This document shows, piece by piece, positions 5,801 to 11,800 of a DNA stretch of 64,000 bases; the stretch's first letter is position 1, and every line of letters starts with the position of its first letter. This DNA comes from Pseudomonadota bacterium (GTDB taxonomy: Bacteria > Myxococcota > JACRCW01 > JAFGSX01). The stretch spans positions 1 to 64,000 of the forward strand of contig JBDRCO010000134.1 of NCBI GenBank assembly GCA_043821645.1, given 5' to 3'. Position numbers: made by a program.

Positions 5801-8800
5801 CTGGCCCCGATCTCGAAGGCGTCGGTGGTGGGCTCCTGGGCCTTCGCCGGGAGCCCCTTCTTGGCTGCCTTGCGCCGTTCCGAGGCGCGGGTCGACACCT
5901 GCTGGCGCGGGGTCTTGGGACTCTTGGGGCCGATTCCGCCGCTGCGAATGGTCATGCTGAACCTCGTCTCCAGGGTGCCCGGGACAGACACCACGCCACC
6001 CTTGGGTATCGTCGACAGGTTACTTTTGGTTGCCCGGATCGTCAAACGCGTCGGGGTGTTGCGGCCAGGGCTCCTTGACGATGTCGGCCGCCCGGGCTTA
6101 GCTTGGGGGCGCGCCACGTCGTCGCGGACGTGTGCCACGGCCGGATCCCCGCGAGGGGCGAGAGGCCCGTTCGCCATGCCGGTGACGGGCAAGCAGCAGG
6201 GACGGACCACGCATGGGCGACGGCGGCACCGGCGAGAAGACCGAGGAGGCGACCCCGCAGCGCCTGCAGGAAGCGCGCAAGAAGGGTCAGGTGATGAAGA
6301 GCCAGGACGTGCTCGCGGCGTTCGGCTTCATCATCACCTTCAGCGTCCTCGCCCTGATCATGGGCTCGACCCTGGACCAGCTGCGCGAGTTCATCCTCGC
6401 CTGCATCTACGCCGGCACCGGGAACGGAGGCCTCCCCGCCGTCGTCAACACGACCTTCAAGGCGCTGACCTTCACCCTCATCCTGGTCATGCCGATCCTG
6501 GGAGCGGCCTTCGTCGCGAGCGTTGCTGCCAACTACGCCCAGGTCGGGTTCATGTTCACCACCCACCCGCTCAAGCCCGACATCAAGAAGATCAATCCGA
6601 TCTCCGGGCTCAAGAGCATGTTCTCGAAGAAGAAGGTGGTCGAGCTCATCAAGCAGCTGCTCAAGTTCAGCATCATCACCTACGTGTGCTACAGCGCGGT
6701 CAAGGACAGGATCCGCGACGTCGTGGTGGCGGTACGGGTGCCGCTCGAGAACTCGATGCTGCTGGCCGGCGAGATCATCTACGACCTGGCCATCAAGGTC
6801 GCGGCGGTCTTCATCGTCATCGCCTTCGCGGACTTTCTCTACCAGCGCTACCAGTTCAAAAAAGATATGATGATGTCCAAGTACGACGTGAAGCAGGAGT
6901 ACAAGCAATCCGAGGGCGATCCGGAGATGAAGGGCCAGCGCAAGGCCCTGGCCGAGGAGCTGATCATGCACGGCTCGCAGCAGAACGTGGCCAATGCCGA
7001 CGCCGTGGTGACCAACCCGGCACACATCGCCGTGGCCATCAAATATGACAAGGAGAAGGGCGGGGCGCCCCAGGTGGTGGCCAAGGGTCTGCGCAAGCAC
7101 GCGGACAAGATCAAGGAAATCGCTCGACAATCCGGCGTTCCCATCCTGCGCAACGTGCCCCTGGCGCAGGCCCTGAACAAGCTGGAGATTGGCGAGGACA
7201 TCCCCGAGGAGCTTTTCGAGGCCGTGGCCGAGGTGCTCAACTTCGTCTACGAGCTGCAGGAACAGAAGAAGATCTGAGTGTGGGCAACCCCTGGCCTGGC
7301 CGTGCCGATACAGGGATAGGGTCCCGGCCCTGCGCGAGCCAGCGCCCCCGTGGGCAAGAGGAGCTGCTGCATGACCACCATCGGAACCAGAACTGGATGG
7401 CCGTTTCCTGTAGGCACAGGCCTGGGTGTCTCGGCCGACGAGCTCAAGGCCCAGCAGGCCAAGCCCGACCGCGACCCCATGCTGTCACCCATCCCCCAGG
7501 TGGGGCCCACCGAGTTCCTGGCGCCGACCACCAACTCGGAGCAGCTGCGGCTGCAGGTTCCGACCGCGGCCAGCCCCCTGGCCACGCCCGTGGGGCCGCT
7601 GCACGACCACATCTACATCCGCAAGGCCCTGGCCAAGGCCAAGGGTGACCTGAGTCAGCAGCTGCTGCAGTTCGTGACCCGCGGCGGCGTGTCGCTCCCT
7701 GCCGACCGCCAGAACCAGATTCGCGCCTCCCTGTCTCGCGAGCAGGCCATGTTCTCGCTGCTCGACGACACCCAGAAGATGCAGGAGCAGATCTACGGCA
7801 TGATCATCGGCTCTGCAGAAGCTTGACCCGCTCCTCGTCCCTGCTAGGCTCTCCGATCTCTCGACGAGGCGGGAGCCCTTCATGACCACCAGCAGCAACC
7901 CTCAGATGGCAACGCTCATCACCCGCTGGGCGCGGGGTGAGCTGACTCTGAAGGAGATCAAGGGCTACACCGACGACGAGCTGTACGCCATCGCCCACCA
8001 GGGTTACTTCTACCTGATGCAGGGCAAGAACGACGCGGCGCGCACCATCTTCGAAGGGCTCGTCGCCATCGACCCGCGCAACGGCTACTACTACCGCGCC
8101 CTGGGTGTCATCTACCACAAGCTGGGCGACGCCGAGCGCGCCCTGCGCCAGTTCACCTACGCCACCCGCGTCGCGCCCAGGGACCCCGCCGCCTACATCA
8201 ATCGCGCCGAGGTTTACGTGGCCACTCGCCGCATCGCCGAGGCCAGGCGCGACCTGGGCTACGCCACGCAGCTGGTCGCCGCCGACGCCCGCGACCCCCT
8301 CACGCGCAAGGCCAGGGCCCTGCTGGCCTCGCTGCGCTGACGCAGGTTTTTTTATCGCCAGATCTCGGAAAACTCTGCCGCGCGGCTTTTGCAGCCGTCA
8401 GACCGGCAGATCCGGGGTGCCCATTTCTATAGCTCAATTGATAAGTTACGAATTTCCTCTGGCATCATCCGGGCTTGGGCCCATAATCATAGCAACGCCT
8501 CGGATGAATGACCGATACAGGCTCGTGCAACCCGTGCGGCAAGCTGTCGCACATTCCTCCTACGACGGAACTCGGGGAGGAGGAGAAAGGAGAACGGGAT
8601 GTCGTTTCTACCCATCGGAGGACCTGGAAGCGGTATGGGCCTCAACCGACTATTCGAGGGTTCGCAGGGCATGCAGGTCAATCGCATGCTCGACGCGCTG
8701 GGCCTGCCCGACAACGTCGGGGACATGATCGGCGCGCAGATCGATGCCGCACGCGGCGACTGGGCTGGCTACGCTCGCAACATGCAGGACCTGACCTCGG

Positions 8801-11800
8801 GCATGAGCTCGGGCCAGATGGACAAGCTGTTCGGCAAGGGTCTGCCGGGCTCGCACTTCATGCCGCGTCCGCATGCCGCACTCGGGAAGGGCCGTCAGCT
8901 CTGGGGCAAGCAGTTCCACACGCCCTTCGGCACCCACAGCGTTAGCCGCGAGCGCCTGGGCGGCAAGGGCATCTTCGGCCGCATGGCAGGCCGCAGCATG
9001 GAGCGCGCGATCCTGACCAACCCCGCCTTCAAGGCCAGGATGGAGCGCGTCCTGGGCGGGCGCATCATCCCGGACGGCCGCGCCGACGGCAAGATCACCG
9101 TCGAGCGTTTCCGCCCCAACTTCACCGGCCTGCCCTTCTCGGCGCCCATCGCCGCCAACCCCATGCTGTCGGGGATGTACGGTGCGCTGTCGCGTCTCGA
9201 GGGCAACATCAAGAACCTGGCCCAGAGCATGACCAAGGGCGGCGCCACGACGGGCGGCGCCGGAGGTGCGGGTGCCACAGGCGGCGCGGCCGGCACCTCG
9301 GATGCGGCCCTGCTGCAGGATCCCGAGACCCAGAAGCTGGCGGATGGCATGGGCATGAGCCCGCCGCTCAGCTTCGAGGACATGCTGTTCTTGATGATGA
9401 TGAAGTACGCGCGCAAGAAGGAAAAAGAGATCCTGACCAAGATGAACGAGCTGTCCGGCAAGGACGGCGCCAAGGGCGCTGAGGAGGGTGGCGGTCGCCG
9501 TCGCCGTGGCTACGGCGGCGCACTGGGCGGCATCCTGGGTGGCGCGCTCAAGATCGGTGGCGGCATCCTGGGCGGCATGTACGGTGGCCCCATGGGTGCT
9601 CAGATCGGCAGCTCGATCGGCGGCATGGCCGGCAACGCCCTGCAGGGCGGTGGTGGCGCTGGTGGTGCCGGAGGCGGCGGCGGTGCGGGTGGCGCGGGTG
9701 GCGCCGAGGGCAACTTCGGTGACCCGAACAAGACCTCGGACGCCCTCAAGCAGATGCAGATGCAGAAGCTGATGGAAGACCTCAAGAAGATGTACGAGAT
9801 GCTCTCGAACGTGATGAAGAGCATGCACGACATGCAGATGGCGGCGGTCCGTAACCTCCGCTAGTCGCAGTCCAGATCGCGGTTCGCAGGGCGGCGGGAG
9901 TTCTTCCCGCCGCCTTTTTTTTGTACCCCGGGTGTCGACGACCCGGGCTCGCGGTACTGGCGGCGTGCCCGTCGAGCAGGGCGGTTGCAGCGGCGTGCAA
10001 AAAGAGCGAGCCTTGGCTCTGGTCCGTGCCCTCCGACGCGTCCACCAGCACAGGGGAGTCCCATGCCCGAGCGGCCGAATCTCAAGAACGCCCGTCAAGA
10101 GCTCAAGCGGGGTGCGTGGATGCTGCGGACCGGCGCCAAGCAGCTGGTGCGGCAGCTGGCCGTCGAACTGGTCGACCAGCGCGACCTGACGCTGCGCGGT
10201 GTCGACGAGGTGCGCGAGGACCTGGGGACCTGGTGGTCCGAAGATGCGCCGCTTGGCGACAAGCTGGACTCCCTGCGCCACCTGGGACACGGGGTCTCGG
10301 TGTCGCTGGCAGACCAGGCGCGCAGGCTGAGCGAGCGCAGCAACGATCTGACCCGGGCCACCATCACCTTCACCCGTCTGCAGGGCTTCTACAACGAATA
10401 CTACGGCAAGCAGGCCTATGCGCCCTTCTTCCTGGCCTTCCAGGAGGCGAAGGCGGGCATCGTGCTGGCCGCCATGCCTGCACACAAGCGTGCCGAGCTG
10501 ACGGTCTATGCCGAGCGCATCCGGGACGCCCAGCTGGGTATGGGGCGAAAGACCGCGTCCTACAGCGACTGTGCACGGTGCGAGCGCCCCCTGGGTGGTG
10601 AGACCGGAGGTGGCTGTTGCTCGTCGTCGGTGGCGCAGATGTTCAGACCCGTGGATGGCCTGTTCCGGCGCCTGCTGGGAGAGCGCGCCCCGGTGTGGCC
10701 GACGCTGCCCACGGACTTCACGCGCTGTGGATACATGGGTCCTCGCGGCTGTGTGCTGCCCGCGGGCACCCGGCCCGTGATCTGCGTCGGTTTCTACTGC
10801 AACGTCTTCCGGGCCCACCTGGACGAGGATCGCGTGTGGCGAGACCTGACACCGGAGTTCAGGCAGATCCGCTCGTCGGTCAAGGGCCTCGAGTTCCGCT
10901 TCAACATGCACCGCCGCTTCCTCACCGGGCAGGGGCAGACCATCAACGACGGCACCGTCGGTTACCTGTGGACCAAGCTGATGAGCCTGTATGCGTCCTA
11001 CGACCAGGTGGCACCGTCGACGCAGAAGGACGGTGTGGACGCCCTGGCCGAGCTCGATGAGGACGGGTCTGCAGCGGCTGGCGTCGAGGCTGCGGCCGAG
11101 GTGACGCCGGAAGCTTCGGTGGATCCTGCGACCGGTGAGCTCAGCTACGAGGCCGGGATCGCGCAGGTGGCGGCCTTCCTCAAGAGCCAGGGCAAGCCCT
11201 CTCCTGGCAACGGCGACAGCTAGTGCCTCGACCTCCGGCACACCCCCGCGCTGCGCGCTCGACGACGCCATCCGCTCCGCGCCGCCGCGGCTGGCTGTCT
11301 CCGGCCGCCGAGGGCGAGGGCGCCCTCCGTGTCGACGAGCTGATCGCGTCCATTGCAGGCCGAGCGGCATACGGACCGGCCGCCTATCGCCCCGTGCCGA
11401 CCCCCGGAGAAGGACGCACCGTCGATGTATGTGCAGGCTGCGAGGTGGACTGCTGCTCGCACCACGTGCTGCCGCTCAGCGTCGAGGACGCCTACGCCAT
11501 CCGCATCGCGCTCAACCTGCCCTTCGAGGCCTTCGCAACCCTGGTCCCCTATCCCAACGGCGCCCCGACCTGGCCGGTGCGTCTGGCCCGGGGGAAGGCC
11601 CTGCTGGCACTGCGTCGCCGTCGTCAGAGCTGCCTGTTCCTGCTCCGTATCGGCGGGCAACGGCGCTGTGCCATCCATGGCGTGCGGCCCATGGCCTGCC
11701 GCCTGTTCCCCTTTCTACCCGACGCGACGGCGCAGCGGAATGCCCCCGAGGGCATGCTGGCGCAGCGCGTGCCGAGCGAGTGTCCCTGGTGCTGGCCGCG

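Follow-up and report, generated by a model that had tools for sequence, protein, structure and literature searches.

Long proteins with a needle-type C-terminal helix as candidate tip or filament subunits of the myxobacterial type III secretion system

The locus downstream of sctU in the myxobacterial contig JBDRCO010000134.1 raises the question whether a secretion system of type III (T3SS) described as needleless and without a tip encodes extracellular parts after all. Passages of PMC10433427, PMC12075869 and PMC3459982 describe the M. xanthus system (T3SS*) as devoid of needle and translocon; its delivery of lytic factors without needle, translocon and secretin is stated as open in portions of PMC10433427 and PMC12075869, and the loss of SctF in the myxobacterial lineage is part of the model of injectisome evolution outlined in sections of PMC3459982. 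In the window, i.e. the whole stretch of 64,000 nucleotides analyzed here, g05332 encodes one of seven proteins which a survey of the genome had proposed as filament or translocon subunits. Our analysis upholds their link to type III secretion and assigns their tail to the needle/tip type. The seven themselves are probably not the needle subunit, since a separate short family occupies the needle slot.

The seven long proteins and the g05332 locus

The tail is encoded by exactly seven ORFs, which lie on seven contigs and have the reported lengths of 363-643 aa, and a deeper tail profile again recovered only these seven. A shared helix (helix A) and the last helix are present in all of them. The glycine-rich segment that had been described as common to the family is a hydrophobic hairpin (19-residue hydropathy of at least 1.0) in only three, the hydrophobic segment being missing in the other four; the inter-helix inserts range from 40 to 284 aa and from 12 to 52% glycine. 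Near-identity of the tails (91-100% across 43 residues, despite synonymous differences, with N-terminal parts down to 42%) applies to the five full-length paralogs and does not extend to the remaining two (47-53%), which have just the two helices in common with the other five. A representative search with a profile differing from that of the survey returned 3018 proteins at E<=0.001 (survey: 862).

One reading of the family is secreted cargo or effectors, with the tail as a reusable targeting or self-association module without structural function. Such a role would fit N-terminal domains that are unrelated from lineage to lineage, the 30 tail matches of genome G005, of which many fall in 800-1400 aa reading frames, and tails on proteins whose starts look signal-peptide-like by eye or in genomes without a FliP/SctR match (three of five searched). 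It would also fit the five to six long members in G011 (same class, 92% complete), a genome in which neither sctI, the short family, sctR, a G-like TPR nor a T3SS sigma factor was found. We nevertheless regard it as improbable. The tail and not a catalytic domain is the most conserved part, no enzyme domain was found, and the Myxococcus and Anaeromyxobacter relatives have one conserved, chaperone-linked long copy per genome.

The features of the locus are given in Table 1; no RNA holder is listed for it. The survey had placed g05332 at 7882..9864. The gene is confirmed at 8599-9864 on the + strand, and the start at 7882 belongs to the upstream TPR gene. SctU of the window is 42% identical to T3SS* SctU and 32% to short-locus SctU; the flagellar flhB lies apart, on contig C86. 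The 151-aa ORF, which has no Pfam or NCBIfam family, may be SctX-like, judging by its position. The TPR gene reported between sctU and g05332 exists as the second gene after sctU. Its nearest relative (43%) is the TPR that comes after the post-sctU ORF of the T3SS* cluster, and its client may be the 151-aa ORF rather than g05332. The LcrH-like chaperone noted near g05332 was likewise found, below cut-off, at 12115-12783. It is the ortholog of the TPR directly after the Myxococcus long member (46% identity, E 1e-39) and, judged from sequence and synteny, would be the best candidate chaperone for g05332.

Table 1. Features of the sctU-g05332 locus (window positions)
Feature	Position	Strand	Basis
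sctU, non-flagellar export switch	6213..7277	+	TIGR01404 363 bits, above cut-off
Promoter-like site GCAAC-N16-CCGATA	7284..7310	+	among 8 such sites genome-wide
151-aa ORF, homologue of T3SS* post-sctU ORF (MXAN_2452 cluster)	7371..7826	+	phmmer E 4e-6
LcrH/SctY-like TPR chaperone	7882..8340	+	TIGR02552 E 1e-22, SctY E 1e-10; neither reaches cut-off
Promoter-like site GCAAC-N15-CCGATA of g05332	8492..8517	+	motif common to sctI and sctP
g05332, long-family protein, 421 aa	8599..9864	+	ORF with ribosome-binding site; paralogs
N-terminal alpha/beta domain of g05332 (about residues 90-175)	8866..9123	+	AF2 block, pLDDT 75-91
Helix A of g05332 (residues 259-287)	9373..9459	+	with tail aligns to two-helix hairpins (model)
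Hydrophobic glycine-rich hairpin, inter-helix insert of g05332	9523..9579	+	hydropathy 1.31 over 19 residues; pLDDT <50
C-terminal needle/tip-type helix of g05332 (residues 382-421)	9742..9861	+	profile and PDB matches
GC hairpin then T run, terminator-like	9890..9922	+	read off sequence
LcrH-like TPR	12115..12783	+	TIGR02552 E 3e-26, below cut-off

Export machinery, promoter and chaperone neighbors

The genome encodes the export apparatus, ATPase, C-ring, SctJ and SctI, and its SctV branches together with that of the T3SS* long locus (support 100/100). The T3SS genes are near-complete and scattered over at least five contigs, have their own FliA-like sigma factor and coexist with a flagellum. 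No dedicated secretin SctC was found in the genome, only GspD in the T2SS cluster and PilQ in the type IV pilus cluster, and SctW (PF07201) reached a best E of 0.026-0.4 in four of five genomes, none above cut-off. With neither a T3SS secretin nor an SctW match above cut-off, exit through the outer membrane is without explanation.

The motif GCAAC-N15/16-CCGATA occurs at eight sites in the 7.07 Mb genome. Seven are intergenic, and six of these precede sctI, sctP, the post-sctU ORF and three long paralogs. The promoter reported ahead of three of the genes was recovered at the copies in the window, on C69 and on C94, and the contig order fits the genes named by the survey. CCGATA lies upstream of five of the seven long paralogs versus 99 of 5267 genes, and in relatives the motif also precedes members of both the long and the short family. 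A mainly flagellar route of export, prompted by the coexisting flagellum and by G011 keeping only its flagellar system, was rejected as the leading reading because the promoter, common to sctI and sctP, has a -35 unlike that of the flagellin promoter, and because no such motif stands before the two G011 copies whose upstream region is complete.

In 27 of 30 best-member long-family loci of relatives, an LcrH-like TPR gene of the same strand is no more than 1.5 kb away, and one of the seven long proteins has such a neighbor in the genome under study. Among 80 genomes, 12 are without sctI and the short family, and 11 of these 12 have no long-module match. Chaperone synteny, the shared promoter and phylum-wide co-occurrence support the long family as extracellular-type T3SS parts, and the seven proteins are most likely substrates of a non-flagellar T3SS orthologous to T3SS*.

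Resemblance of the tail to needle, tip and translocator proteins

The tail had been likened to both needle proteins and NolX/SseC translocators. The needle/tip part of this comparison stands and the SseC/NolX part does not. A whole-genome search with PF09392 gave six matches, the top five being four paralogs and SctI (best score 16.4 bits, curated cut-off 29.4). Twenty of 34 long-family modules matched PF09392 (best E 9e-6; a G005 member scored 22.9 bits, below cut-off) and six the flagellar rod C-terminus. EspA was matched by two (best E 0.011, below cut-off) and SseC by one (E 0.02), and the matches to SctB2 (E 0.18) and SseD (E 0.003, 17.6 bits versus 130) span hairpin plus tail. No Bsp22 model was among the matches of any profile scan. 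The NolX (3e-5) and HrpK1 (1e-4) matches of the Myxococcus long member lie in an N-terminal repeat at residues 130-197, outside the tail.

PDB searches, said to have found nothing, gave needle/tip-concentrated matches with deeper profiles, and it still holds that none is significant. The tail profile drew 16 matches from 177,635 PDB sequences, the first five needle chains and six IpaD (best E 0.17; IpaD E 2.4-3.3), and no translocator was among the PDB matches of the tail profiles. The tail aligns, up to its last residue, with YscF and PrgI over their loop and second helix, and its invariant Gln and Ser-Asn line up with both, each match being non-significant. Shallow and short-family profiles gave no significant T3SS match in the PDB. 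Long members differ from the ~80-aa two-helix hairpin of SctF in being 4-8x larger. Their predicted layout of N-terminal domain, coiled coil and insert resembles that of the pentameric tips IpaD/SipD, without full-length similarity.

At locus L092, a canonical translocon operon with the order LcrH, SctE, SctB, proteins of 190-206 aa and SctC, it is the 190-206 aa proteins that match the tail (hhalign 94%, E 1.4e-7, 40 columns), and by position and size these would hold the slot of the SctA tip/filament proteins. SctE and SctB of the same operon are unmatched (2% and 0.1%, single-sequence templates). Because helix A matches just 2 of 120 SctA-slot relatives (hhalign 4%), the shared part amounts to about 40 residues. 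The tails of the L092 SctA-slot proteins may resemble Bsp22. Their alignment found only coiled coils in the PDB, and no reference SctF genes were found in 201 genomes of another class.

The AF2 model of g05332 (pTM 0.30; hairpin modelled solely for residues 256-421) gave no Foldseek match at E<=0.001, and its N-terminal domain drew no usable match from the ESM Atlas. In a VIA comparison, helix A plus tail matched EspA with Z 6.0 (rmsd 3.2, 72 residues), tied with cohesin-like generic coiled coils. Two helices around a variable insert are the layout of EspA (EPEC) and Bsp22 (Bordetella), whose N- and C-terminal helices enclose a variable, insertion-tolerant region according to portions of bioRxiv 10.1101/2024.03.04.583273. 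Unlike these, the long family has an extra N-terminal domain of 200-400 aa, inserts that in part contain a hydrophobic hairpin, a TPR chaperone neighbor, up to seven dispersed paralogs and no secretin. The case for secreted axial subunits of the tip/filament (SctA-like) kind, of which some would bear a membrane hairpin, we put at an even balance.

The main rival reading is that of hydrophobic translocators (SctB/SctE-like), held by LcrH-like chaperones, that insert the glycine hairpin into the prey membrane and dock on the needle by their tail. The LcrH-like neighbor speaks for it, as do a size of 300-650 aa, the 25 modules among 34 that have a hydrophobic segment (hydropathy of at least 1.0; in 15 of them at least 1.5), the weak SctB2 and SseD matches and the NolX/HrpK1-like repeat, recalling HrpF/NolX/HrpK1. 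According to parts of PMC10333785 and PMC9163089, LcrH-type chaperones bind hydrophobic translocators, those of needle and EspA proteins being of other classes. The hydrophobic insert, needed by a pore-former, is missing in four of the seven paralogs and in the Myxococcus member, no SseC/SctB match comes near cut-off, the tail is of needle type without a PDB translocator match, and the canonical operon offers its SctA-slot proteins and not SctE/SctB as matches. PxLxxP is a translocator chaperone motif, and in the first 100 residues it is not enriched (6 of 147 versus 6.7 shuffled). Overall, translocators appear unlikely, though less so than cargo. Counted against tip/filament subunits were the sub-cut-off family matches and non-significant PDB matches, the coiled-coil tie and pTM of the model, helix A, the LcrH chaperone class, the hydrophobic modules, the SctB2/SseD matches, G011, the FliP/SctR-less tails and the missing secretin and SctW match.

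A short family in the needle slot and a proposed assembly

The tail also led to a second, short family of 135-190 aa, represented in M. xanthus by the MXAN_2434 cluster (the long family by the MXAN_5822 cluster); the T3SS* cluster begins with MXAN_2434. A 40-column tail tree splits long and short families at 100/100 and gives no order of the two. The short gene lies between a small helical ORF (E-like; MXAN_2433 in M. xanthus) and a CdsG-like TPR, just upstream of sctI, an arrangement comparable to the order of the yscE-F-G operon. Of 30 best loci, 22 have it in this slot (directly before sctI in five), and it is present in 62 of 65 sctI-positive genomes. The YscE-F-G complex is treated in portions of PMC9163089. 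Unlike SctF, short members are about 2x larger, with a hydrophobic hairpin and a Gly linker, and all their needle scores are below cut-off. Their model (pLDDT 48) retrieved only generic long helices in VIA; in the ESM Atlas the short protein found Myxococcota clusters without a name, and one further cluster, at 0.90, in which PF09392 accounts for 11%. By gene order the short family, not the seven, fills the needle slot between two chaperone-like genes, and it would be the better needle candidate. The survey missed this family because the genome under study does not carry it.

Could the long proteins be the main filament subunits, needle-type hairpins with large outer domains in the manner of multiple flagellins? 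Their tail is indeed more SctF-like than the short one (PF09392 in 20 of 34 versus 6 of 31; needle among PDB matches versus 0 of 4 for the short tail). Moreover, the genome under study keeps sctI and the G-like TPR and lacks the short gene and its E-like partner (the assembly yielded no small stand-alone needle gene; best E for an E-like gene 0.31). Misassembly at this TPR was rejected, the junction being bridged by contigs from two studies, one possibly the source sample. The missing genes could, however, sit on an unassembled piece (assembly 94.7% complete). Given the prevalence of the short family in its slot, and several sctI-positive genomes without a long match at 1e-8, we consider long main filaments very unlikely.

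For the preferred tip/filament subunits we propose the following assembly. The scattered, near-complete T3SS* export machine and its FliA-like sigma factor are present as genes. At least three of the seven long genes would be co-transcribed with sctI and sctP via the shared motif, presumably read by this sigma factor, and the neighboring LcrH-like TPR would hold the long protein before export. Once exported, helix A and the last helix would pair as a hairpin and stack on the inner rod or needle in the manner of SctF and SctA helices, a step proposed on the basis of a modest model and of likeness in sequence. The insert and the variable N-terminal domain would point outward. A hydrophobic insert may enter the target membrane, and the paralogs may therefore act as interchangeable tips. 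In most relatives, short proteins of the MXAN_2434 type, served by E-like and G-like chaperones, would make up the proximal needle. The genome under study has lost this pair, so that its long proteins would either be seated straight on SctI or belong to a vestigial filament.

The M. xanthus T3SS* (MXAN_2434-2464) has orthologous SctV, SctU, SctN and SctR and the same chaperones, sigma factor and promoter; the genome under study differs in its dispersed genes, coexisting flagellum and missing short gene. Taken jointly, a wider picture is tentative and falls slightly short of even. In it, the myxobacterial T3SS, the earliest-branching injectisome lineage, would have a needle. MXAN_2434 would be an enlarged needle subunit with the E-like MXAN_2433 and a G-like TPR, and MXAN_5822/g05332 the tip/filament, some members uniting tip and translocator in one chain. 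The filament would be periplasmic or at the surface, without a dedicated secretin, and serve bacterium-on-bacterium lysis. If these proteins form filaments, the base of the injectisome tree saw the needle kept and not lost, and bacterial prey is the target of a needle-type device.

Two overlooked needle-tailed families in predatory myxobacteria provide named genes for the study of prey attack in a model strain that is tractable and non-pathogenic: MXAN_2433, MXAN_2434, the TPR after it, MXAN_5822 with its chaperone, and two identical 74-aa ORFs. The original T3SS* paper, reportedly that of Thiery from 2022, may comment on MXAN_2434. Annotation calls all M. xanthus candidates hypothetical or TPR proteins, and MXAN_2433, MXAN_2434 and the next TPR lie outside the published deletion mxan_2438-2451.

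The g05332 locus and its dispersed relatives

Our analysis of the assembly (7.07 Mb, 67% GC, 94.7% complete; the window derives from contig C134) identified six relatives of g05332 on six other contigs, four of them full-length paralogs and two sharing only two helices with it. The survey's finding of seven dispersed proteins with a near-identical last helix holds for their number and dispersal; near-identity (91-100% over the last 43 residues) is confined to g05332 and the four paralogs. Among these five close copies the first 200 residues are 42-84% identical, and within the tail each pair shows 3-12 synonymous differences, a sign that selection acts on the protein. 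A shared Gly-rich segment, as also suggested, is at best a partial description of the insert between helix A and the tail, which measures 40-284 aa across the seven and is hydrophobic in three only. The position of g05332 after a TPR gene near sctU was recovered, with the 151-aa ORF between the TPR gene and sctU. The ORF divergent from sctU is a possible type III secretion system (T3SS) substrate.

Features in the window and on other contigs (C, contig; L, extracted locus)
Feature	Location	Strand	Remark
Asn-Gln-Asn-Ser tandem-repeat ORF	window 2-322		at contig end
291-aa ORF	window 5080-5955	minus	divergent from sctU; Ser/Thr/Pro/Lys-rich start, no family match
sctU	window 6213-7277	plus	
151-aa ORF	window 7371-7826	plus	
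TPR gene, first	window 7882-8340	plus	
g05332	window 8599-9864	plus	421 aa
Two unrelated ORFs	between g05332 and second TPR gene	plus	
TPR gene, second	window 12115-12783	plus	
1642-aa ORF	window 28565-33493	minus	start LysM-like by eye
451-aa protein	C134:65538-66893		just beyond window; no tail
1143-aa LysM + annexin-repeat protein	C43:84883-88314 (L013:5883-9314)		helix A (E 5e-11), no tail
sctI, second FliA-like sigma, CdsG-like TPR	C43		sigma at C43:101945-102733 (L018:4945-5733)
sctV	C70		
sctNOPQ, FliO-like gene, sctRST, sctJ + FliG-like gene, two sctL	C87		sctL pair at C87:173522-174897
Flagellum-like relics	C87:261582-277402 (L014)		in the non-flagellar set: FliG-like gene following sctJ; SctQ carrying a FliM-like domain; FliO-like gene ahead of sctR
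DUF1521 proteins	C22:57470-59663 (L017); C23:66444-71402 (L021)		one immediately 5' of third LcrH-like TPR
Translocon operon	L092:209-8391		
Two identical 74-aa ORFs	L094:9251-9475 and 11666-11890	minus	among LcrH-like genes

The secretion system, its promoter and its chaperone genes

The flagellar cluster is complete (contig C86), and the non-flagellar T3SS is separate and scattered. In an eight-sequence tree its SctV joins the long locus of a Myxococcus-type genome (G117) at 100/100, and this locus encodes proteins that fall into clusters with MXAN_2433, MXAN_2434 and MXAN_2452; the system is therefore the T3SS*, which is called needleless in the literature. Both secretins of the genome belong to other gene clusters, those for the T2SS and type IV pili. 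The T3SS* cluster also encodes a DUF1521 protein, and the DUF1521 proteins found here are likely T3SS substrates.

The motif GCAAC-N15/16-CCGATA occurs at eight sites in the genome, seven of them intergenic, and six of these seven precede sctI, sctP, the 151-aa ORF and three paralogs, in agreement with the sigma-28-type promoter previously noted ahead of three of the seven; the motif was derived from these same upstream regions, so that the site count is not an independent test. Six other spacer classes give 0-5 sites each, and the flagellin promoter carries TCAAG in place of GCAAC. CCGATA lies within 250 bp upstream of 5/7 paralogs versus 99/5267 genes. Among relatives it was found in 12 of the 37 upstream regions checked, ten of which also have GCAAC, the short-family gene of G117 (see below) being one of the 12. 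The probable owner of the promoter is the second FliA-like sigma, which is encoded inside the T3SS gene set and has kept its position before sctI in 4/5 genomes.

A same-strand LcrH-like TPR gene, whose product would bind the neighbouring protein as a chaperone, lies within 1.5 kb in 27 of the 30 best-member loci, among which kin do not count as independent cases. The long member and an LcrH-like TPR gene form a two-gene unit in the relatives from Myxococcus and Anaeromyxobacter; this member clusters with MXAN_5822, on which a search of the main text of freely accessible papers found none. Tail profile matches occur in 224/301 genomes of the phylum, a tally that takes in the unpublished comparison genome G195; all other claims are independent of G195.

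Resemblance of the tail to axial proteins

Over the whole genome PF09392 (needle) gives six matches, all below cut-off, with four paralogs and SctI on top. Among 34 modules (helix A through tail), PF09392 matches 20 at E<=1, the flagellar rod C-terminus six, EspA two and SseC one. A 35-sequence tail profile found 16 PDB matches at E<=10, namely YscF (0.17), a chain of 43 residues from a complex of needle and chaperone (0.22), which we read as the needle fragment, three PrgI chains, six IpaD and five unrelated ones. The seven are probably variants of known T3SS axial proteins and belong to no curated family.

Very probably they are exported by the T3SS. Granted this, the chances are about even that they form a tip or filament, polymerising and bearing an optional membrane hairpin. 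The canonical operon of locus L092 (LcrH, SctE, SctB, four 190-206 aa proteins, CesT-like gene, SctC) bears on this: the module matches the four proteins with an hhalign score of 91.5% with their own alignment, and the tail at 94% across 40 columns with an alignment of 64 relatives; helix A matches just 2/120 of their relatives. These four tandem proteins occupy the tip slot and have 1710 relatives, without a Pfam family; named relatives are from Kiritimatiellae and Victivallales. That the long family are translocators, as the hydrophobic inserts might suggest, is about half as likely; the module matched neither SctE nor SctB of the same operon. The AF2 model of g05332 (pLDDT 63.7, pTM 0.30) shows an alpha/beta domain at the N terminus, for which no usable fold match was obtained, together with a pairing of helix A and tail that scores Z 6.0 against EspA; generic coiled coils score as well. 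The likeness of the tail to NolX was misplaced, since the NolX/HrpK1 signal sits in the N-terminal repeat of the Myxococcus member. The repeats of the 451-aa protein are homologous to this part (E 8e-12).

Use as cargo or in an unrelated role has a low probability. Several results speak against the reading as T3SS parts. In genome G011, which carries 5-6 long members, sctV is represented by no more than a short similar fragment, and no match was obtained to sctI, sctR, the short-family gene, the T3SS sigma or the G-like (needle-chaperone-like) TPR. No FliP/SctR match was obtained in 3/5 other-phylum genomes with related tails, and at L073, L074, L083, L087 and L089 (contigs of acidobacterial, gemmatimonad and, in one case, archaeal-labelled MAGs) the short-type tail is on proteins with signal-peptide-like starts, possibly as a self-assembly module reused outside T3SS. 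A search of five genomes for the gatekeeper SctW gave no match over cut-off. The tail alone is thus no proof of a T3SS role, and the case for one rests on synteny, promoter and co-occurrence. In genome G005 (L100, L102) the tail is matched 30 times, in many cases within frames of 800-1400 aa and in some as tandem copies beside TPR genes; two short-family genes there lie in tandem and have the same tail sequence.

A short family in the needle slot

The tail profile also found proteins of 135-190 aa in both Myxococcus T3SS loci, whose tails are homologous to the long ones (hhalign 97%), yet form a separate group. In the T3SS* the order is 91-aa ORF, short protein (MXAN_2434 cluster), TPR, 131-aa ORF, sigma, sctI, sctJ and the rest. 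This runs parallel to the Yersinia-type order yscE-F-G-H-I-J. In the 30 best short-family loci, an E-like gene before and a TPR gene after are present in 22, E only in two and TPR only in one, the E-like profile having been built from four of these same loci; the short gene immediately precedes sctI in 5/30. Of 80 genomes, 65 have sctI and 65 the short family; 62 have both and 12 have neither. With this family in the needle slot, the long family is least probably the main filament subunit, for all its PF09392 matches. Several results count against the short family as needle: its tail matches PF09392 in only 6/31, its profile found no needle in the PDB, it has a hydrophobic hairpin, and its structure model is poor. 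The genome studied here is one of three sctI-positive genomes without it; neither an E-like nor a short gene was found upstream of the G-like TPR or in any other part of the assembly. This junction is spanned by contigs from two studies, of which one is possibly that of the source sample.

Four papers describe the system as without a needle (PMC12075869, PMC3459982, PMC10433427, PMC12288465). PMC3459982 argues that SctF, if present, would have been detected and concedes that tip and translocon homologs were possibly overlooked. MXAN_2434 receives single mentions in three papers, PMC10196010 among them; in the other two it is the cluster boundary and nothing more. The seven and the short family are specific, testable candidates for the missing tip and needle. 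A third needle or pilin candidate are the 74-aa ORFs in the G117 cluster, which have canonical needle size, score 20 bits with the long-tail profile and occur in M. xanthus clusters, annotated as hypothetical proteins.
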